Part shown: positions 2,241-48,319 of the stretch, in pieces
Position numbering within the stretch: position 1 is the stretch's first letter
Layout of the letters: each line of letters opens with the position of its first letter
NCBI GenBank assembly: GCA_963721455.1
Contig: CAVRJG010000039.1
Coordinates: forward strand, 128,001-192,000
DNA: 64,000 nt
Origin: an uncultured Methanosarcinaceae archaeon
GTDB taxonomy: Archaea > Halobacteriota > Methanosarcinia > Methanosarcinales > Methanosarcinaceae
Reading direction: 5' to 3'
The notes under the pieces: model-generated
The model's database searches: none
Told to the model about the DNA's origin: nothing
Seen by the model: only the letters and a program-made list of their open reading frames with translations
Made by a program: the position numbers and the translations under genes

Positions 2241-4169
2241 ATGAAGCGCAAAGAGTTTCGGAAACTTGTCTCTGTGGAGAAAGCACAGGAAATAATAAAC
2301 AGCCTGCGGGTTATTCCTGGAAAGGAAGGCTCAGCCCTTGAAAACGCACACGGAAAAATCCTTGCAGAGGATATTGTTACCGAAATTAATGTTCCTCCTT
2401 TTCCAAGAGCTGTAATGGATGGTTATGCCGTCAGGGCAGAAGATACGTATACCTGCAGCGAAACCGAGCCTGTAAGGTTAAGGATGCTGGGGAATATCCC
2501 CGCAGGCTCGGATGCAAAATTCACGGTTTCTGCAGGGGAAGCCGTGGAAATAGCTACTGGAGCACCCATCCCCGAAGGCGCCGATTCTGTGGTCATGGTC
2601 GAATACAGCTCTGAAGAAGACGGAACCGTGTCGATTTACAGACCTGTAGCTATGGGAGAAAACATCATGAAAGCTGGTTCGGACATCCTGAAAGGAGAAC
2701 GTGTACTCAGGGCAGGACGGAAACTCGGAACCAGGGAAATCGGGGTGCTTGCTTCTGTCGGAAAAAACGAGGTCCCTATCCTTAAATTGCAGGTCGGGAT
2801 AATCTCAACAGGAGACGAACTTATGCGTCCCGGAGAAAAACTTGTTTCCGGGAAGGTATACGATGCCAATTCCTATACATTATACGCCGGGGTACAGGAG
2901 TGCGGAGCCTTCCCCCTGCTTTACGGGATTATAAAGGACAATGAGACGATCATGAAAAAGGCACTTGAAACTGCGGTTTCGGAATGTGCCCTGGTCCTGA
3001 CTTCTGGCAGCACATCATCCGGAGCCGGGGATGTGGTGTACAGGCTGATAGATGAAATAGGAGAAACCCTTGTCCACGGTATTAATATAAAACCCGGAAA
3101 ACCTGTGGTTATTGGCGTAATAAAAGGCGTCCCCATTATAGGGCTGCCTGGAAACCCCACATCCGCATTAATGATTTTTAACGAATTCGTAGCTCCCCTT
3201 CTCAGGAAAGCCCTTGGAGTCGAAACAGGGCTCAAAAAGGTAGAAAACGGAATTATGGGCACTGGTTTCCGTTCCGAAGGAAGACAGCAGCTCCTTCCGG
3301 TAGGCCTGATTCGGGGACGGGTGTATCCCGCAGATAGAGGTTCGGGTGCCATAACCTCCCTTTCAGGAGCAGATGGCTTTATCGAGATTCCGTCCAGTAC
3401 CGAATTTATTGAGGCAGGGACCCCTGTTGAAGTGACCCTTTTCGGAGAAGTTGAAAAACCCGACCTGCTGATAGCAGGCGGCTTCTGTCCAGGCCTTGAC
3501 CTGCTTGAAGACCTTAGCGGACTTCGCTTCAGGACACTTTATACTGGGTCAAGCGGGGGCTTCAGTGCAATTGCCGCAAACACAGCCGATATTGCAGGTG
3601 TGAATATGCCTTCAATATATCCCGGAGAGCAGGCTGGCATTCTGTACAATACCCCGACAATCGAGAATATGAGGCTTTCAGATGTTGTACTTGTCAAAGG
3701 ATACAGGCGGGAAGTAGGGCTTCTTGTCAGGCAGGACAGCCCGATTTCAGGGCTTTCGGATCTTCCAGGCAAACGCCTGATTAACCGGAACCTCGGTTCG
3801 GGCACAAGAGCTCTTTTTGATCTGAAAATTGCAGAACTCGCAGGTAAAAAGGGAATTAGCAAAAAGGATTTCACGGATTTTATACCCGGATATGCATCTG
3901 GAGCAAAATCGGAGGTTGCGATCTGTGAAACAGTTGCCTCAGGAAAGGCCGATGCAGGAGTAGGAATAAGAAATTGTGCCGAAAAGAGCGGCCTTAAATT
4001 CATAAAATTTGCAGAGGAAGAGTATGATTTCCTTATAAGGAGAGAAGTGCTGGAAACTCCCGAAGTCCGCCAGTTCCTCAAAATTCTTAATTCCGACGAA
4101 TTCGCTTCAAAGCTCCAGGCAGGGCTTCAGGTGTATGAGAGGACAGGAGAGATGATTTCCTTTGAATAA
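2241..4169 (+). CDS. moeA: Molybdopterin biosynthesis MoeA fused to a C-terminal PBP (molybdate-binding-like) domain
   Basis: PPFPRAVMDGYA, IATGAPIP, STGDEL, KPGKP and GLPGNP motifs; C-terminal INRNLGSGTR...EEEYD. Confidence 0.9.
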   Translation: MKRKEFRKLVSVEKAQEIINSLRVIPGKEGSALENAHGKILAEDIVTEINVPPFPRAVMDGYAVRAEDTYTCSETEPVRLRMLGNIPAGSDAKFTVSAGEAVEIATGAPIPEGADSVVMVEYSSEEDGTVSIYRPVAMGENIMKAGSDILKGERVLRAGRKLGTREIGVLASVGKNEVPILKLQVGIISTGDELMRPGEKLVSGKVYDANSYTLYAGVQECGAFPLLYGIIKDNETIMKKALETAVSECALVLTSGSTSSGAGDVVYRLIDEIGETLVHGINIKPGKPVVIGVIKGVPIIGLPGNPTSALMIFNEFVAPLLRKALGVETGLKKVENGIMGTGFRSEGRQQLLPVGLIRGRVYPADRGSGAITSLSGADGFIEIPSSTEFIEAGTPVEVTLFGEVEKPDLLIAGGFCPGLDLLEDLSGLRFRTLYTGSSGGFSAIAANTADIAGVNMPSIYPGEQAGILYNTPTIENMRLSDVVLVKGYRREVGLLVRQDSPISGLSDLPGKRLINRNLGSGTRALFDLKIAELAGKKGISKKDFTDFIPGYASGAKSEVAICETVASGKADAGVGIRNCAEKSGLKFIKFAEEEYDFLIRREVLETPEVRQFLKILNSDEFASKLQAGLQVYERTGEMISFE

Positions 4170-12695: not shown

Positions 12696-12768
12696 AGTCC
12701 TGTAGGGTAGTGGTCAATCCTTCGGGCCTTTGGAGCCCGGGACAGCGGTTCGAATCCGCTCAGGACTA
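12696..12768 (+). tRNA. tRNA-Gln(TTG)
   Basis: AGTCCTG...CAGGACTA acceptor stem, anticodon arm CGGGC-CT TTG GA-GCCCG, GGTTCGAATCC. Confidence 0.95.
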
Positions 12769-13389
12769 TAAAAATATTTTTAATAATTCTAAGTAATTGA
12801 TGTTTTTATTACTGTTTTTCAAACTCTTTTATTTACGCCTATTCACAAAGTGTTAGCTGAAGCAAAAAAATGTTTTTGACGTAAAATTAATCCAACTTAA
12901 TACCAATAATGCGCAAGATAGAGTTTGAGCCTTTTGATAGTTGGCCTATGATAGAATTACCAATTTTTTTGATTACTTCCTGGACTGGTTTATGGGAATC
13001 TCATGGCTTCATAGATTGCTTCCCTTTTGCTCCAGGTTCATGGTTTTTAACTCATTTTAAGCTCTTTCAAACTCTGGTTTCGTCGTTGAGTCATTGATTT
13101 ATTATTAGATCTGTAAATGCTATTACTTTTTGGGAAGGGGTTGAAATCACTTTCGAAATGAAGTTTTTACAGTTTTTTCTCCAGGACCAGATGCAGTAAC
13201 CCCTGCGGTAGCGGTAGAAAATTCAAACGTTGTCACGACCATCAAAAAGGAGGACTGGAAGGGAGAAATCGGAAGTAGAGTATAAACAGGGACAGGACTC
13301 TGCCACGACATATAGATCGGTTTTAGGAAATAAATGAGAAAGTGGGAAAATTGGAAGGTAAGATAAAGACACCTACCTCTCAACAATCA

Positions 13390-13617
13390 TCAGCGACCCC
13401 GATCGTCACTGTCACAATTGCCCCGATCTTTCCAGTTACAACCGCCACCATCTTTACTATGTCCATCTCCACCAGATCCATCTCCACCAGATCCATCTCC
13501 ACCAGGTCCATCTCCACCATCAACGACTCTTGCTGATGCAGTTGTCAGAGATACTACAAAAAAGACAACCAGTAAAATGACCAGCGTCTTTTTTATTATA
13601 GATGTTTGTTCCCCCAT
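13390..13617 (-). CDS. Secreted Gly/Asp-rich peptide, cassette A
   Basis: Signal peptide KKTLVILLVVFFVVSLTTASA, GGDG(P/S) repeats, tail GGGCNWKDRGNCD; RBS-like GGGGTG upstream. Confidence 0.7.
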   Translation of the reverse strand: MGEQTSIIKKTLVILLVVFFVVSLTTASARVVDGGDGPGGDGSGGDGSGGDGHSKDGGGCNWKDRGNCDSDDRGR

Positions 13618-14101
13618 TTGTCTACACCCCTAACTTTTGTTAAAATTGATACAATTCAAAACTATTGTTTAATAACACTTTTCGCAGGCAGAAGCCTTTA
13701 GTAAATATTATTTAACCAATTATATTATTTAATCGATTATATTATTTCACCAATTAGTCATCCAGATTTATTTCTTGAAGAGTATATTGGTCATTCTTTC
13801 TTGATTTTATGTCTGATATATTATGTGCCTATGAAAGCGATTTCAAATTGTACCATTACGAGATTATCATTGATGGAATATAATATTAATTGGATTATGA
13901 ATACGAAACCAATAAATATTAGTCTGAAATAATCGTGTCAAATTGCCGTAGATATACTTCAGTAATGATATTTACCACAATTAATTCTCATTTTTCATAT
14001 AACTTTACAAAAATATCACTCAATTGCCAAGAATTGCAATAGACTCAAAGTTCATATCGACTTAGATAATATAAAGTTCAGTAAATCGGGAAATATATAT
14101 T

Positions 14102-14231
14102 GAGCCTATCCCAAAAGCCACTTTATTCTTAATCATTGGGAATTTTCAGAATTTTTTTCATGATCTTGAGCTTGATTGATTATTCGAAATACAAGGCCCA
14201 AGAAGCAAATTTCAAGTTTTGGGATGAACTC
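14102..14231. mobile_element. 130-bp MITE-like element, family 1
   Basis: TIRs GAGCCTATCCCAAAA / TTTTGGGATGAACTC; inverted homologue at 62586-62715. Confidence 0.7.
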
Positions 14232-14583
14232 TATACCTGTAAATTCTATTACTTTTAGGGAAGGGGTTGAGACCACTTTCGAAAAAGAGATTTCACAGTT
14301 TTTTTCTCCAGGACCGGACGCAATAACCCCTGCCCCTGAGGTAGCGGTCGAAAATTCAAACGCTGTCACAGCCATCGTAAAGGAGGACCGGAAGAGAGAA
14401 ATCAGAAGTAAAGACCACACCGGGTTCAGCTACGGCCTATAGATCGATTTTATGAAAGAAATAAGTAGGAAAAAGTAGGAAATTAGTAGGAAAGCGAGAA
14501 AGTAGGATGAAGAAATCTGTGTTATGAAAGGAATAAAGTAGGAAAGTGAGAAAGTAGGATGAAGACATCCTACCTCTCAACAA

Positions 14584-14987
14584 TTACCACCAGTCACATC
14601 TGTCCCAGCAGCCCCAATCGTTCAAGCCACAGCCACAGCCGCCATAGCCGCCCCAGTTGCCCAGGCCCCAGCCGCCATAGCCGCCCCAGTAGCCGCCCCA
14701 GCCGCCATAGCCACCACGGTGTCCTCCACCGTATCCACCACGGTGTCCTTTAAATCCTCCACCGTATCCACCGCGGTGTCTCCTCCACCGTATCCACCTT
14801 GGTGTGATCCACCGCCACCGTATCCACCGTGTGATCCACCGCCACCGTGTCCCATCTGATGTCCACCGCCACCGCCACGGCCACCGCCACGGCCACCGCC
14901 AGGAGCGGCGCTTACTGCCGCAGCTGTCACAGATACTACAAAACAGACAACTAGTAAAATAGCCAGTGTCTTTCTAAGTTTCCCCAT
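14584..14987 (-). pseudogene. Secreted Gly/Tyr/Trp/Cys-rich peptide, cassette B, frameshifted near 14780
   Basis: Signal MGKLRKTLAILLVVCFVVSVTAAAVSA; after a 1-nt shift the frame continues HRGGYGGG..GGYWGG..CGCGLNDWGCWDRCDWW* (TAA 14584-14586). Confidence 0.7.
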
Positions 14988-15595
14988 TTGTCTACACTCC
15001 TAACTTTTGTTCAAATTGATACAATTCAAAGTGTTTTATAATCACTTTTCACAGGCAGATACATTGAGTAAAGATTATTTCACCAATTAGTCATTCAGAT
15101 TTATTTTTTGAAGAATTCCTTGAAGAAAATGTTATTGATACCTTCTATCTTCACTTATGTCCGATGTATATGCCTATGAAAGCGATTTCAAATTGTATCA
15201 ATATAAGATAATAATTCAAAGAATATAATATATACCGAATTATAGATAAGGAAATAATATATACTGAATTATACATCAGAACCAATAAATATGATTGTGA
15301 CCCATTAGCTGGCTGAGATTTTATTTTTTGAGTGTAGGTTATTCACCTGCACCTGTTTTCTAAGCTTATTTGCTTACGAGAAATTGAAACATATAATGTG
15401 AAAGAATGAGACTCGGAAAGCAAGTAGGGGAATATACTAGGGAAAAAATAGCAACTTATTATTAATGGACCGCCAATAAATATTAAAATCTGAATAATCA
15501 TGTAATCTGTTTTATGAAAGGAATAAAGTAGGAAAGCGAGAAATTAGGATGAAGAAATCTGTTTTATGAAAGGAATAAAATAGGGAAGTGAGAAA

Positions 15596-15615
15596 GTAGG
15601 ATGAAGACATCCTAC
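15596..15615 (-). terminator. 3' hairpin plus T-rich tract after cassette C (homologues 13357-13377, 14554-14573, 17439-17458)
   Basis: GTAGGATG-TCTT-CATCCTAC about 10 nt after the stop codon, followed by pyrimidine tracts. Confidence 0.6.
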
Positions 15616-15625
15616 CTCTCAACAA

Positions 15626-15916
15626 TCAACACCAGTTACAGCCCAAGTTACAGCCACAACTGCGGTCCCAGCAACCACTGCCACAGCCGCCCCAGCCGCC
15701 CCAGCCCCAGTTGCCGCCCCAGCCGCCCCAGTTGCCGCCCCAGCCGCCCCAGTTGCCGCCCCAGCCGCCACCGTGTCCGCCGTGCCGCCGCCAGCCGCCG
15801 CCGCCCCAGCCGCCACCGCCTCCATGTCCGCCGCGTGCGTCTACTGCCGTAACTGTCAATGACATTACAAACAAAACAACTAGCAAAATAGCCAGTGTCT
15901 TTTTCAGTCTACCCAT
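15626..15916 (-). CDS. Secreted Gly/Trp/Cys-rich peptide, cassette C (intact)
   Basis: MGRLKKTLAILLVVLFVMSLTVTAVDA-RGGHGGGGGWGG..GGNWGGW repeats..CGSGCWDRSCGCNLGCNWC*; RBS GGAGTG. Confidence 0.8.
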   Translation of the reverse strand: MGRLKKTLAILLVVLFVMSLTVTAVDARGGHGGGGGWGGGGWRRHGGHGGGWGGNWGGWGGNWGGWGGNWGWGGWGGCGSGCWDRSCGCNLGCNWC

Positions 15917-16470
15917 ATATCTACACTCCCTATTTTTGTTCAAATTGATACAATTCAAAACTATTGTTTTATAATCACTTTTCGCAGTTCACAGGCAGAT
16001 GCATTGAGTAGATATAATTTCACCAATTAGTCATCCATATTTACTTATTGAAGAATTTCTTGAAGGGAACATTATTTCAAGAGAATGCTATTGGTACATT
16101 CTATCTCCACTCTATGTCCGATGTATATGCCTGTGAAAGCGATTTCAAATTGTACCACTATAGAATCATCATTTATGGAATATAATATAAACAGAATTAT
16201 AAATAAGAAACCAATAAATATCAAAGTCTGAAATAATCCTGTCATTTTCCCGCAGATAGAGCTCAGTAATGAGATTTATCACAATCAATTCTCACTTTTT
16301 ACATAACTCCACAAAAATACCACTTGCGTACCCAAAATTGCAAAGCTCAAAGTTCATATCGACTTAAATAGTATAAAACTGGGTAAATCGGAAAATATTT
16401 ATTAATAATGTGTAGGTTTTACGAAGCCTTGACTCTTTTTCATTAAGCAGGTGATTTATCTCAATTCCAT

Positions 16471-16598
16471 AGGACTTACGCAGTTGGACTGAAAAACCAG
16501 TAGCTTGAGACTTCAAGTGATTCAAATCATAATATAAATCAAAATATATATGACAGATCTGCTCGTGTACTATGTTACCCCTCAGGTGCGTAAGCCCT
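16471..16598. mobile_element. MITE-like element, family 2
   Basis: TIRs AGGACTTACGCA / TGCGTAAGCCCT; second copy 18324-18436; related ends at 61530-61636. Confidence 0.65.
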
Positions 16599-17261
16599 AC
16601 GAATCAAAAACCTATTTCCTGAAGGCAGGATACAAAAGATCGTTTCTGACGAAGATAAAGCAATCATTGGAGCTGTAAAGAGTGTCTTCCCTGAAGTGGC
16701 TTATTCCTTTTGTGTATTTCACCAATTAAAAAACGTTAGCAAGAGGTATAGTGATGAATTCAACTCTATCACAAATATTCCAGATAATGATGAGCTTGTG
16801 TACAATGAGATGTCAATTAATACGCTCTGATACGGTCATCAGTGCTGTTGTATGTTTTCAAAAGATACGAGAATTGGATTCTAATCTGGAACTTTCAAAA
16901 GCGTCTCATAAAGCGATTTCTTATGCAAAAGAGATTTTCACGAAAAATGTAAGCTTTTTGAAAAAAGGGTTTACACCTGAGACAGATAAAATACAATGGA
17001 ACAGATATTTTCTTTGATAAGTGATGTTGTAGACAAAGCAAGATCATTCAAAACTGATAGTGGTCTAACTAATTTTTGTTACAATTTGTTTACTTATTTA
17101 ACAAACGGTGTTTCCACACTGGAAAATGGAGATGATTCTCACCCTTAATGAGGGTAAGATTCCAATATGGATAAAGGTAAAAGGAAAAAAGTAAACCTTC
17201 AATCTAAACTGAAATTCCTATAGCGGTAGCTAATGGAAATTTCCACAAAAAATAGGGTGCC
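16599..17261 (+). pseudogene. 3' half of a degraded DDE transposase (IS256/Mutator-like CxxH motif)
   Basis: IVSDEDKAIIGAVKSVFPEVAYSFCVFHQLKN, then frameshifts near 16810, 16990 and 17098 and an in-frame stop. Confidence 0.75.
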
Positions 17262-17468
17262 TAGTAAAAAATTGTATAAGTTCTTGCATGATTGAATCAA
17301 CTTTTCCAAAATGAGTAGATTGGTTCACTCCAAATTATGATGAAATTTCATGATTTTTTCGAAATTGAAGAAGAACCAGAAAAATAAAAAAGACTCGTAG
17401 ATATGTATTATGAAATAAATAAATGGAAAAGTAAGAAAGTAGGATGAAGACACCCTACCTCTCAAAAA

Positions 17469-17745
17469 TCACCACCATGTGCCACAACAGCCACAACGGT
17501 GGTCCCAGCAATCACAGCCGCAGCTGCGCCAGCCGCCCCAGTTGCCGCCCCAGCCCCAGTTGCCGCCCCAGTGGCCGCCCCAGCCGCCACCGTGACCCCA
17601 GCCGCCGCCGCCGTGTTCCACCGCCGCCGCCGCCGTGTTTCCAGCCGCCGCCACCATGTGGGCGGGCGTCTACTGCCGCAACTGTCAATGACATTACAAA
17701 CATGACAGCTAGTAAAATAGCCAGTGTCTTTTTCAGTTTAACCAT
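17469..17745 (-). pseudogene. Secreted Gly/Trp/His/Cys-rich peptide, cassette D, frameshifted near 17618
   Basis: MVKLKKTLAILLAVMFVMSLTVAAVDA-RPHGGGGWKHGGGG, shift, HGGGGWGHGGGWGGHWGGNW..CGCDCWDHRCGCCGTWW*. Confidence 0.7.
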
Positions 17746-18323
17746 ATATATCTACACTCCCAACTTTTGTTCAAATTGATACAATTCAAAGCTATTGTTT
17801 GATAATCACTTTTCGCAGGCAGATGCATTGAGTAACAGGCAGATACATTGAGTAAATATTATTTCACCAATTAGTCATCAATTAGTCGTCCAGATTTATT
17901 TCTTGAAGAGAATGTTATTGGTACATTCTGTTTTCACTTTATGCCCGATGCATTATGTGCCTATGAAAGCGATTTCAAACTGTATCACTTTGGTATCACT
18001 TTGATACACTTTGATATCATCATTCATCGAATATAATATCAACAGAATTATAAATAAGAAACTAATAAATATTGAGGTCTGAAATAATCTTGTCATTTTC
18101 CCGCAGATATAGCTCAGTAATGAGATTTATCACAATCAATTCTCACTTTTTACATAACTCCACAAAAATACCACTTGCTTACCCAAAATTGCAATGAGCT
18201 CAAAGTTCATATCGACTTGAATAGTATAAAACTGGATAAATCGGAAAATATATATTAGTAATGTGTTGTATTTAAGAAGCCCTGACTCTTTTTCATTAAG
18301 CAGGTTATTTATCTCAATTCCAT

Positions 18324-22435: not shown

Positions 22436-23689
22436 CTACCTGGATCCTGCTTTAATACTCTTCAGGATTTCCGTTAATCCGGGTCTTTTCCCGTACATCA
22501 GCAGGTAAGCCCTGAAAAGCCGGCTGGAAAGCAAGATCACTCCATGAACCGAAACAAACAGAATGAAGATGCTGGCAAGAACCTGGTATGCAGGCACTGC
22601 TGTTGCCCCCATCCTGGCAAGCATGGCTACGGGAGAAGTGAGAGGGAAGAGGGAAAGAAAAACTGAAAGCGAGCTGTCGGGGTTTGTCAGGATCAGTTGC
22701 ATGAATATAAGGGGAGATACGGCTGCAAACGTGAAAATTCCTGCAACCTGCTGGCTTTCCTGAAGGGAGCTGGTCACTGCCCCTATTCCTGCCATCATGC
22801 TGGCAAAGAAGAGGAAGCCAAGCAGGAAATAAATAAGAGCAAGGAAAAGGAGCATGGGCTCAATTTTAATGGGAAGGGCGTACCCGCTCCCGACAGTTAT
22901 TACCGCGAGCCAGAAAACAATCTGCAGAAGGCCGACTGCGCCAAGTCCCAGGATCTTGCCTGTAAGAAGTTCGGAAGGGGTTACGGAAGAAAGTAAAACC
23001 TCTATTATCCTGTTCTCTTTCTCTTCGGCAACACCGCGAAGGAGATAACCCGAAGCCGAGAAAATACTGAAGAAAAGAAGAAAAGCTGTGAGAATGGGAA
23101 GGCCAAGGTTGGCAAGGATTTCGGCAATGCCCTGCTCAGAGAGTTCTCCGCTCTCTCCTATATTATAAAGTTTTATATTAACCGGATCTTTGACCCTGTT
23201 GAGAACCGACTCATCCACTCTGTCTTTAAGGAGGGAAGTGATGACAATATCCGAGAGTTCGGCAGACAGTTCAATTCTTGGAACAGGTGACCCTTTTTCA
23301 AAGGTATAGAGTTCTATTGTTCCGGCTTCAAGAAAGTCTTCAGGAATTACGAGATAAGAAGAAATCTGTCCCGCCTGTAAGGCCTGCCTTGCGTCAGAGG
23401 CCCCCCCGTACATTATAAAAGATATGATTGAAGTTTCTGCCGCAAAAGATCCTGCAGAAAGGCCTTCACTTCTGATAGACTCTGGAAATCCGAAGGAGCC
23501 AGTCATATCAACATAGCCTATATTCTGGTCTTCGGCAGGGATCATGCCTGCAAGTATTGTCGGAAAAATAGTAATCGCCGTAAGGAAAAGAGGGAAAATG
23601 AAGGTCATAAGAAGGAATTCTTTACGCTTTATGGTTTTCAGGAACTCGTGCCTGGCAATAATAAAGATTTTTCCGGAAAAACTACTCAT
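22436..23689 (-). CDS. ABC-2 type exporter permease (NatB-like)
   Basis: IARHEF, EEKENRIIEVLLSS, GKILG; overlaps the ATPase stop. Confidence 0.88.
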   Translation of the reverse strand: MSSFSGKIFIIARHEFLKTIKRKEFLLMTFIFPLFLTAITIFPTILAGMIPAEDQNIGYVDMTGSFGFPESIRSEGLSAGSFAAETSIISFIMYGGASDARQALQAGQISSYLVIPEDFLEAGTIELYTFEKGSPVPRIELSAELSDIVITSLLKDRVDESVLNRVKDPVNIKLYNIGESGELSEQGIAEILANLGLPILTAFLLFFSIFSASGYLLRGVAEEKENRIIEVLLSSVTPSELLTGKILGLGAVGLLQIVFWLAVITVGSGYALPIKIEPMLLFLALIYFLLGFLFFASMMAGIGAVTSSLQESQQVAGIFTFAAVSPLIFMQLILTNPDSSLSVFLSLFPLTSPVAMLARMGATAVPAYQVLASIFILFVSVHGVILLSSRLFRAYLLMYGKRPGLTEILKSIKAGSR

Positions 23690-24593
23690 TTGCGGCACTC
23701 TCCACAGTTTCAATAAAAATTTCGTTCAGAGAGGGAAGTGCCTGCTCAAAACGCAGAATATTTGCCCTCCGGACAAGCTCCTCAAGAAGAATCTGTGTGC
23801 TTACGCCTTCCTCAGGAAAGATTTCAACGGATTTTTCATATTCTGTTATTTTTCTTATGCCGGAAATCTCCCGAATTGCATTCAAACCCTCTTTTTCTAC
23901 GAATTCCACAATAAGAGAGTTTTTCCCATGCTCTCTCCGGATCTCATCCACAGTGCCGTAAAGTACTCTCCTGCCTTTATTCAGCATAAGAATCCTGTCG
24001 CAGAGTGTCTGGGCCTGTTCCATCATGTGCGTGGAGAGGACTACTGTCTTTCCTGAGTTTCTGAGTTCCAGAATTCTGGCCTTAACTGTTTTTGTACTTA
24101 GAGGGTCAAGGCCAGAAAAGGGTTCGTCAAGAATCACAAGTTCAGGGTCATGGATAATAGCAGAAAGGAACTGAATCTGCTGCTGCATTCCTTTGGAGAG
24201 TTCTTCCACTTTTTTACTTCTATGTTCATATAACTCCACAGATTTAAGAAGGGATTCGGCGTTTAATTGAGCCTGTTTTTCAGGCATTCCTTTAAGCTGT
24301 GCCAGATAGACCAGCATATCCAGAAGCTTTATTTTCCTGTATAATCCCCTTTCCTCAGGGAGATATCCTATCCGGTCTTTTGCAGGCGAGCTAAGAAGAG
24401 CTCCAAAAACGCGTATTTCCCCGACATCCGGCCTGATAATATCAAGAAGAAGCCTGATAAGCGTGGTCTTTCCTGCCCCGTTTGGCCCGAGGAGCCCGAA
24501 GATCTCACCCTGCCTCACTGAAAACGAAATATCTCCGATAATATCCTTTTCTGCGAAAGACTTCGATACGCTTTCAAATTCCACAGTATGCAT
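23682..24593 (-). CDS. ABC exporter ATP-binding subunit (NatA-like)
   Basis: GPNGAGKTT, LSKGM, ILDEPFSGLD. Confidence 0.92.
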   Translation of the reverse strand: MHTVEFESVSKSFAEKDIIGDISFSVRQGEIFGLLGPNGAGKTTLIRLLLDIIRPDVGEIRVFGALLSSPAKDRIGYLPEERGLYRKIKLLDMLVYLAQLKGMPEKQAQLNAESLLKSVELYEHRSKKVEELSKGMQQQIQFLSAIIHDPELVILDEPFSGLDPLSTKTVKARILELRNSGKTVVLSTHMMEQAQTLCDRILMLNKGRRVLYGTVDEIRREHGKNSLIVEFVEKEGLNAIREISGIRKITEYEKSVEIFPEEGVSTQILLEELVRRANILRFEQALPSLNEIFIETVESAANE

Positions 24594-24745
24594 CCAGATT
24601 AAATACATTCCAATATAGAATAAGTTTATTCGATATTTGATTGAAGCAAAAATTCATTTAATATTTTATTGAAAATGAGAAACTATTCAGCATTAAATGA
24701 GTTAATGAAAACTCATAGGGGAAATAAGGAAATTCAGGGGATAAT

Positions 24746-47802: not shown

Positions 47803-48123
47803 TTATGCTGCTTCGAAGCCTAAGGTGAAGCCTCGCGCGAAGCCCTGGTTATAGCATATCTCGCAGGAAAGTTGACCAAGTTCCTGAATAGCTTTGTTCT
47901 TTATTTGACTTGGTTCTGAGTCTGGTTGGGAGTTTGATTTTTGTCCAGATTCTCTGTATTCTTTGCCAGCTATGTAGCCTGCCGCCTTGCCTGCCTTGAG
48001 GCCTTTTGCGTAATCATCTTCGTTTGAAGCGGCTGCTGTCGCAGCTATCACTGACACTAAAAAACAAACTGCCAGCAAAATAGCCAGTTGCTTCCTTATC
48101 TTTGAAAATGTTTGCCCTCCCAT
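47803..48123 (-). CDS. Secreted hypothetical protein with the island-type signal peptide
   Basis: MGGQTFSKIRKQLAILLAVCFLVSVIAATAAA; YxxG repeats; RBS GGAGGTG. Confidence 0.7.
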   Translation of the reverse strand: MGGQTFSKIRKQLAILLAVCFLVSVIAATAAASNEDDYAKGLKAGKAAGYIAGKEYRESGQKSNSQPDSEPSQIKNKAIQELGQLSCEICYNQGFARGFTLGFEAA

Positions 48124-48319
48124 AAATCTACACCTCCCAATTTTGTCAGTTTAATGCGCTTTTATACAGTTGATTTTTTCATCAGCTTGACTGCGAATAT
48201 AATCGGTCTTGTATAAGGTACCCATAATTATTTTAGACTTCATCCCCTACTACAATTACTTATAGTATTCTTATTTTATATTTCATTTTAATAAGCATTT
48301 GCTATACAATGCAAAAATT

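Follow-up and report, generated by a model that had tools for sequence, protein, structure and literature searches.

A tandem array of genes that probably encode small exported glycine-rich peptides in a Methanosarcinaceae archaeon

The gene array

The stretch of DNA considered here (the window; 64 000 nt, contig C39:128001-192000) comes from the genome of an uncultured Methanosarcinaceae archaeon, assembled as 3.94 Mb in 73 contigs, and our subject is an array of four small genes, A, B, C and D, in the region 13390-17745 of this window. Inspection of the open reading frames (ORFs) and their translations showed that all four lie on the minus strand in the same orientation, each within a repeated cassette of ∼1 kb, and that all four carry the leader consensus (K/R)KTL(A/V)ILLxVxFVxS(L/V)T followed by an A-x-A-like site. 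The common orientation and leader had been described earlier by a reader who saw only the letters and their ORFs (the original prediction below). It was borne out when a hidden Markov model (HMM) of the leader was run against the 55,341 stop-to-stop ORFs of the genome, which recovered the four ORFs of the array at E = 4e-17 to 5e-15. We propose that the array very probably consists of separately transcribed genes for small, ribosomally made, Sec-exported and intrinsically disordered glycine-rich proteins.

Two of the genes are intact in the assembly. Gene A (13390-13617, minus strand) encodes 75 amino acids (aa), comprising a signal peptide, acidic repeats of the GGDGS type and a C-x8-C loop (CNWKDRGNC); its product is acidic, contains a single His and has no CWD tail. 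Gene C (15626-15916, minus strand, ATG at 15916) encodes 96 aa, namely the signal peptide MGRLKKTLAILLVVLFVMSLTVTAVDA, three copies of GGNWGGW and the tail CGSGCWDRSCGCNLGCNWC, and its mature part of 69 aa is 51% Gly and 17% Trp with 6 Cys. In the other two genes, the leader and the Cys/Trp tail are in different frames. The leader-frame ORF of B (14622-14987, minus strand) encodes the signal peptide and the first GGR/GGH/GGY repeats before it ends in out-of-frame Ala/Val/Thr nonsense, and the HRGGYGGG and GGW/GGY repeats with the tail CGCGLNDWGCWDRCDWW are found in another frame (14584-14784, minus strand, stop 14586-14584). The break lies at ∼14779-14784, where two extra bases (GA) are present relative to an internal repeat unit. 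The leader-frame ORF of D (17512-17745, minus strand) encodes the signal peptide and PHGGGGWKHGGGGGG, then an out-of-frame Arg/Leu-rich stretch up to the stop at 17514-17512; its HGGGGW/GGNW repeats and tail RSCGCDCWDHRCGCCGTWW, reading ...CGCDCWDHRCGCCGTWW at the end, are in the +1 frame (17469-17625, minus strand, stop 17471-17469), and a net +1/-2 nt change is located near 17613-17625. The tails containing CWD that the original prediction ascribed to B, C and D do exist, but in B and D they are not in the leader frame. Of the four genes in the original prediction, A and C are intact; the frame shifts of B and D had been read across unnoticed. We also weighed programmed frameshifting as the cause in B and D but rejected it, as no slippery heptamer is found at either site and intact orthologues differ by plain insertions and deletions (indels).

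A second genome of the same genus (G045) is syntenic in this region, with 85-90% DNA identity across it, and carries orthologues that have leader, core and tail in one frame: D with 88 aa, C with 104 aa and all 6 Cys kept (L027:11934-12248) and B with 132 aa (L027:12949-13347). Cassette A is absent from this genome. Two further relatives are P0001, an intact D allele of 92 aa from a metagenome, and P0022, an orthologue of A of 80 aa with one additional in-frame repeat unit; their source contigs (each of 68,240 bases) are probably one contig. The intact orthologues of B, C and D in G045, together with P0001 and P0022, show that leader, core and tail formed a single ORF originally. The protein sequences read by the original prediction therefore represent the ancestral state, although two of the genes are broken here. 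Homologues that keep both the leader and the Cys/Trp tail therefore exist (the G045 orthologues and P0001). The breaks of B and D may be real or stem from the assembly. Other broken forms occur in the family, namely P0002, a frameshifted C-like product of another assembly, and a copy of C that lacks 1 nt on a natural contig. When contigs of four runs were compared with the array, cover over the Gly-repeat part was swamped by unrelated sequence, and stretches without contig cover were not counted as evidence. An exact search of metagenome contigs with 42 nt of the D tail gave 0 matches.

The cores are built from microrepeats, as the original prediction had it, and these are real at the DNA level, with units of 15 nt in A and 21 nt in C. 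The mature parts of ∼48-103 aa consist of Gly microrepeats with His, Trp, Tyr or Asp, and the cores of B, C and D are followed by a short Cys/Trp tail whose cysteines are kept between species; the tail of D has 6 Cys within 13 residues. In an alignment of five proteins (C of the window, the orthologues of B, C and D, and P0001; B and D of the window were left out), the invariant positions are four columns of Cys, the W-D that follows the second Cys column, and a C-terminal W. One to three H-G(2-5)-W motifs were present in each of five B-, C- and D-type proteins counted, and 0 in two A-type proteins. The net charge is -4 for A, about neutral for B and D, and +3 for C.

The shared leader

By inspection, the leader has the tripartite form of a signal peptide, with a K/R-K n-region, then TLAILLVVLFVMSLTV, then VDA, VSA or ASA; the hydrophobic core spans 15-17 residues and small residues occupy positions -3/-1. 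In an AlphaFold2 model based on a five-sequence alignment, residues 3-29 form a confident helix with a predicted local distance difference test (pLDDT) score of 81-89, and residues 29-96 have pLDDT <50 (the mean over the whole model is 51.5), so that the mature part is predicted to be disordered. The leader HMM detected 18 leader-bearing ORFs in the genome, nearly all small and low-complexity, and a Shine-Dalgarno (SD)/start context is common to at least 10 of them. The same leader is also present on two globular proteins in Methanosarcinaceae genomes, a cupredoxin (L038:2983-3360; Pfam Copper-bind, 1.1e-12) and a cupin (L059:3983-4528; 8e-16). Moreover, among 108 relatives collected by the profile search described below, 17 match the Pfam domain DUF7096 (PF23379) at E ≤0.01. 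In four of the ten relatives examined, this match aligns only within profile positions 1-30 (the first 27-30 positions), which is the signal-peptide part, and reaches 15-20 bits. The domain has 208 positions and a threshold of 27 bits, above which no relative examined was found, and the window proteins do not match it. Finally, the sole sequence match in the PDB is MKKNIAFLLASMFVFSIATNA, a bacterial export signal in a Fab construct. The tripartite N-terminus, the modelled helix, the leader on the cupredoxin and the cupin, the signal part of DUF7096 and the PDB match together mark the leader as a Sec-type signal peptide, the export signal of this lineage, and not as the recognition sequence of a ribosomally synthesized and post-translationally modified peptide (RiPP). 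From the sequence, we infer cleavage after A-x-A and export.

This bears directly on the analogy with RiPP and toxin precursors drawn in the original prediction. Spelled out, such a reading would have the N-terminus serve as a recognition leader for modifying enzymes from another locus, with heterocycles formed in the Gly/Cys core as in microcin B17 or heterocycloanthracin. The conserved N-terminus with its variable core and the Gly/Cys-rich tails have the outline of such precursors. However, a Sec signal that is common to globular secreted proteins does not fit a recognition leader, most members of the family are without Cys-, Ser- or Thr-rich cores, and neither the window proteins nor the 108 relatives matched any bacteriocin or RiPP precursor model of Pfam or NCBIfam. 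As to enzymes, none that could modify the peptides is located in the island or recurs in 57 related loci, this being the DNA covered. The statement that no modifying enzyme, immunity gene or dedicated exporter is in the island held: between 10700 and 18608, no ORF of at least 120 aa is present besides the leader frame of B itself, the flanking genes are unrelated, and Pfam found nothing in eight intergenic ORF fragments. Clustering of the ORFs flanking the 57 loci revealed no recurrent partner gene; what did recur were other members of the family and a large protein rich in repeats, the latter at ten loci that for the most part seem to be one locus seen in several samples. The precursor analogy is not supported by these results, and we regard RiPP precursors as an extremely improbable identity for the array.

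Distribution of the family

With protein C as the query, 42 of the 59 genomes of the genus gave matches, with up to 35 matches per genome. Fifteen loci combine the leader with a match to C, and 10 of them are titled Methanosarcina or Methanosarcinaceae; the other five are from one Methanobacteriota metagenome-assembled genome (MAG), an untitled metagenome chromosome (two) and bacterial MAGs (two). Judging from these matches, the family appears to be specific to Methanosarcina/Methanosarcinaceae. A profile built from the five tail-bearing proteins retrieved, at E ≤1e-3, 108 cluster representatives among 1.84 billion, of which 83 have the leader. The leader-bearing representatives have a median mature length of 56 aa and a pooled composition of 23% Gly, 8% His and 13.5% aromatic residues; by net charge, 32 of them are positive, 13 zero and 38 negative. 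These figures are biased since the profile favours Gly/His/Trp-rich matches. At least 2 Cys are present in the last 30 residues of 23 of the 83, and His-rich members are frequent (e.g. P0013, P0014 and P0026).

No family of Pfam or NCBIfam covers the archaeal members when the window proteins and the 108 relatives are scanned. The copies that we checked are named in their sources either not at all, or as ‘hypothetical protein’ or, for one member, as ‘uncharacterized membrane protein’. The literature searched does not describe the family; this covers text of the papers on small proteins of M. mazei (PMC11456600, PMC12704099), whose supplements might list members, and of a 2026 archaeocin survey. 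The suggestion of small secreted peptides belonging to an undescribed methanogen family thus agrees with the databases and sources consulted.

Several further members were noted in the same genome. In the window itself, an ORF at 47806-48150 (minus strand) has the leader and the SD context, with a mature part rich in Lys/Gly/Tyr/Ala (KGLKAGKAAGY...) and not in Gly/Trp. A second tandem array of the family, with four genes, is located at C21:41451-49776; one of its products has seven GCGN(D/N)CNW repeats, and three are paralogues with VDRD/VMDRD repeats, one of them ending in GCGGFGGCGGFGGGCGFGCFNRGCGFGC. Their signal peptides end in ...SVSAC, which is lipobox-like in appearance. The member at C53:213410-213781 (plus strand) combines DR/DGDR repeats with a CRDWG-type Cys/Trp/Asp region that recalls the CWD tails. 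Apart from these members, an ORF of 41 aa at C26 ∼2900-3030 (minus strand), rich in Gly/Ala/Cys/Trp (MGFGFGRGFGG...GGWGGWGC), has no signal peptide, and its DNA is similar to the GGW repeats of gene C.

The remaining 25 of the 108 representatives have no archaeal leader but follow a similar design, in which GGH/GGY repeats stand between a signal peptide and a Cys-rich end. By visual judgement, as the library carries no taxa, some of them appear to be bacterial and two resemble plant glycine-rich proteins. These proteins bring in an alternative in which the peptides would be a structural or adhesive coat, self-associating through their Gly/aromatic repeats in the envelope, in an aggregate matrix or on a particle. 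The Pfam family GRP (PF07172) is matched by 10 of the 108 at E ≤0.01 (best 7e-16), with a few weak matches to the Keratin type II head, but the window proteins match no GRP or keratin model. A protein atlas gives ‘Sulfur globule protein family’ as a neighbour at 0.83, which is below the 0.9 line of the tool and serves as a lead only; in its available text, PMC10386293 presents sulfur globule proteins as Sec-exported structural proteins likened to keratins and plant wall proteins. The predicted disorder of the mature part and a net charge near zero for B, C and D (C itself being +3) would suit a coat as well. On the other hand, a structural protein is expected to be conserved and abundant, whereas the array is hypervariable, variable in copy number and frameshifted, and no anchoring signal such as a C-terminal membrane helix or a sorting motif is present. 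On balance, we judge the coat unlikely, though it deserves serious consideration.

Cassette structure and neighbourhood

About 300-500 nt upstream of the genes are kept among the four copies, with a mean column identity of 76%. This region is at 15917-16420 (minus strand) for C, with equivalents at 13618-14110 for A, 14988-15330 for B and 17746-18270 for D. Its blocks comprise an SD-like GGAGTGTAGA 4-6 nt before the ATG, AATTGTATCAA, CGAAAAGTGATTATAAAAC, which resembles a transcription factor B recognition element (BRE)/TATA box, and ATTTGAAATCGCTTTCA; going by the archaeal consensus, the region presumably includes the promoter. On the other side of the genes, a stem-loop begins 7 nt after the stop of C (15589-15621, minus strand), with equivalents at 14547-14579 for B and 17432-17464 for D. 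The hairpins of B, C and D have a 13-14-bp stem with energies of -15.8 to -18.6 kcal/mol (-18.6 twice), and 0 of 200 shuffles fold as well; that of A (13350-13384, minus strand) is weaker, with -12.8 kcal/mol and 11 of 200 shuffles as good. The 3′ hairpin, which is followed by a pyrimidine-rich tract, is likely a terminator or an mRNA-end element. As each gene has its own upstream region and 3′ hairpin, the genes look separately transcribed.

A 23-bp long-range inverted repeat, ATACAATTTGAAATCGCTTTC ... GAAAAGTGATT ... TTTGAATTGTAT (e.g. 15950-16205, minus strand), brackets a stretch of ∼220 nt ahead of every gene. Its conservation across 7 copies involves no compensatory changes, and its left arm is also found on four other contigs. 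The repeat may act at the level of DNA or belong to a long 5′ untranslated region. A structured upstream RNA was considered too: RNAalifold predicted a long-range helix from 7 upstream regions, but compensatory changes were seen in 0 of 53 pairs, which lends it no support, and no Rfam family scored above threshold in the cassettes.

Between cassettes C and D lies a repeated element of 635 bp (16598-17232) with six further copies at 84-94% identity on other contigs (three on C63 and one each on C51, C13 and C3). Its ORFs are short and broken and Pfam gives no match, which makes a non-autonomous mobile element its probable identity. A second repeated element, located 3′ of A and B (14100-14450 and 13106-13291), has >20 partial copies with 74-95% identity on many contigs. 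Beside the array, a tRNA-Gln gene (anticodon TTG) is found at 12696-12768 (plus strand), with surroundings that are syntenic in G045. The unrelated flanking genes encode a URO-D-like methyltransferase, a CitMHS transporter, an FMN reductase and a PAS/GAF sensor. An ABC-2 permease and a DrrA-like ATPase form a pair at 22436-24608 (minus strand), 4.7 kb from the array, with two unrelated genes in between.

Diversification of the cores and expression

Compared with G045, genes B and C have flanks that are ∼90% identical, leaders of 86-90% and tails of 90-95% (95% for the tail of B), with cores of 55-69% and many indels. For D, identity is 97-99% in the upstream DNA and almost complete in the tail and 3′ flank, but it is only 62-66% from a point just ahead of the ATG to the end of the core, a stretch that resembles gene C in the window. 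The mosaic pattern of D points to exchange between copies. The coding-region indels listed among natural variants measure 6, 9, 9 and 3 nt plus one of 1 nt, four of the five being multiples of 3. As these comparisons show, the cores diversify by in-frame gain and loss of repeats and by exchange between copies, with the flanks and the tail cysteines staying conserved. Contigs from other samples join B-like with D-like parts and may be natural mosaics or assembly effects.

Gene A is covered almost completely by the metatranscriptome contigs 13381-13608 (3 differences) and 13496-13646 (0 differences), and metatranscriptome contigs, from two studies in all, also lie over the 5′ regions of B and C and, in the case of B, over the leader.

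The broken frames raise the alternative that the array is decaying, functionless repeat DNA, or that the frames are artefacts of low-complexity GC-rich repeats, in which many frames are open. In its favour, B and D are out of frame, P0002 is frameshifted, one natural contig has the 1-nt deletion in C, and the antisense frames at the array are open too. Against this, another species keeps intact orthologues with start context, signal peptide, cysteine positions and stop, the coding-region indels are mostly in frame, the family is kept in 42 of the 59 genomes of the genus, and the genes are covered by contigs from RNA libraries. Decay or artefact is in our opinion very improbable as an account of the array.

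Tandem copies with a fixed signal and a hypervariable mature part, differences in copy number and mosaic exchange are typical of conflict genes, and this would agree with unmodified, archaeocin-like antimicrobial peptides directed at competitors, akin to the Gly/His-rich and Trp-rich antimicrobial peptides of plants and animals and diversified by conflict. A signal peptide with a Gly-rich and a Cys-rich part is also the architecture of the type II crustins and the shepherin precursor, and C is mildly cationic (+3) with its 17% Trp. However, the charge is mixed in the family, with 32 positive, 13 neutral and 38 negative among the 83 and with B and D about neutral and A at -4, and disulfide-stabilised peptides are unlikely in a reduced habitat. 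In addition, no immunity gene was found. Two small hydrophobic ORFs, 16072-16245 (minus strand, 57 aa) and 17953-18096 (minus strand, 47 aa), were tried in this role and rejected, since ahead of A and B they are either missing or shifted in frame. The former is not conserved, its ATG having been lost in the corresponding place at C in G045, and the copy at D differs by a 25-nt indel. With no conservation as ORFs either at A and B or in G045, the two are unlikely to be genes. Only other families are mentioned for Methanosarcina in the available text of a 2026 survey of bacteriocins and archaeocins (10.64898/2026.07.27.741052). An antimicrobial role is in our view distinctly improbable. Among the three roles suggested in the original prediction (archaeocin-like peptides, matrix peptides and metal chelators), the composition of the peptides speaks for a metal-binding or structural one rather than for a cationic antimicrobial.

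A possible role in metal binding

The explanation that we prefer adds a metal-binding function to the exported, disordered architecture; taken as a whole, it stands a little below an even chance, and for the function itself, argued by analogy, we make a tentative case. After export and cleavage at A-x-A, the peptides would stay unmodified outside the membrane, under or in the S-layer or released, and act as flexible metal-binding sponges. In the His-Gly(n)-Trp repeats, the imidazole of His and amides of the backbone would serve as metal ligands, in the way that the prion octarepeat binds Cu(II), and the CxC/CC tail would bind metal as metallothionein-like thiolate clusters. A thiolate role for the tail fits the reduced habitat, since disulfides are unlikely there. 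The purpose would be to capture or buffer the trace metals (Ni, Co, Zn, Cu) that a methanogen requires or has to detoxify. In the octarepeat, Cu(II) is coordinated by one imidazole, two amide nitrogens and a carbonyl, or by several imidazoles, according to the available text of PMC4101497. At the DNA level, the core of D (17580-17613) scored 33.2 bits, below the gathering score of 39, with the Rfam family Prion_pknot, which covers the octarepeat coding sequence.

Several points weigh against this explanation. Gene A and many members of the family have few or no His and Cys, and one function may therefore not fit the whole family. The resemblance to the octarepeat and to metallothioneins is one of composition. 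The genes have no linked metal transporter or regulator, either among the neighbours or in the 57 loci. Furthermore, with two genes out of frame the array could be dispensable or decaying, and the RNA-library contigs, which may include carried-over DNA, also cover upstream non-coding DNA.

The family consists of genus-wide exported low-complexity peptides in Methanosarcina, a main model for methane formation that relies heavily for its growth on trace metals and on touching minerals and partner cells. Any metal-binding or coat-forming role of the peptides would matter for the supply of metals in digesters and wetlands, for aggregation and for the archaeal extracellular space. One could go further and imagine a large, rapidly diversifying family, present in tens of copies in some genomes and with one common module of signal peptide and 5′ region, whose B-, C- and D-type members pair octarepeat-like His-Gly-Trp repeats with a metallothionein-like Cys/Trp knob. 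They would be extracellular protein metallophores or buffers serving a Ni-, Co- and Zn-hungry metabolism, with repeat slippage, copy exchange and frequent frameshifts tuning or switching the peptide set. This extension is rather doubtful; if true, it would represent a kind of trace-metal handling not described in archaea. Independently of function, the locus illustrates a mode of gene evolution that combines a fixed module for export and regulation with a hypervariable core and a conserved cysteine knob. Should the products be ordinary disordered secreted proteins with no specific role, the result would still be a useful annotation and a caution against reading conserved N-termini as RiPP leaders.

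Comparison with known systems

The precursors of microcin B17 and heterocycloanthracin are small peptides with Gly/Cys-rich C-terminal regions, as in the array. However, they have a non-Sec leader and adjacent genes for a cyclodehydratase, a dehydrogenase and export or immunity, none of which were found at the array. The sulfur globule proteins SgpA/B/C of purple sulfur bacteria share small size, Sec export and a low-complexity structural character (PMC10386293, available text) and are the language-model neighbour at 0.83, but this value is under the confidence line, and methanogens have no sulfur-globule biology. The plant glycine-rich proteins (PF07172), of a kind that the profile also retrieved, have the same signal peptide, GGX/GGH/GGY microrepeats and short Cys-rich end; the window proteins differ from them in being without a PF07172 match or detectable homology, and the array is archaeal, with Trp-rich cores and a lineage-specific leader.

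Among metal-binding proteins, the metallothioneins are known for dense CxC/CC clusters and periplasmic metal sponges such as SilE/PcoE for being small, exported, disordered and His-rich, features that recall the array, whose proteins nevertheless have no family match in Pfam or NCBIfam. The prion octarepeat (PHGGGWGQ) likewise presents H-G(2-5)-W units in a disordered, Gly/Trp-rich exported segment. In contrast to the octarepeat, the repeats of the array are irregular and have no Pro/Gln frame, and the proteins lack a globular domain; the likeness is one of convergent composition and not of homology.

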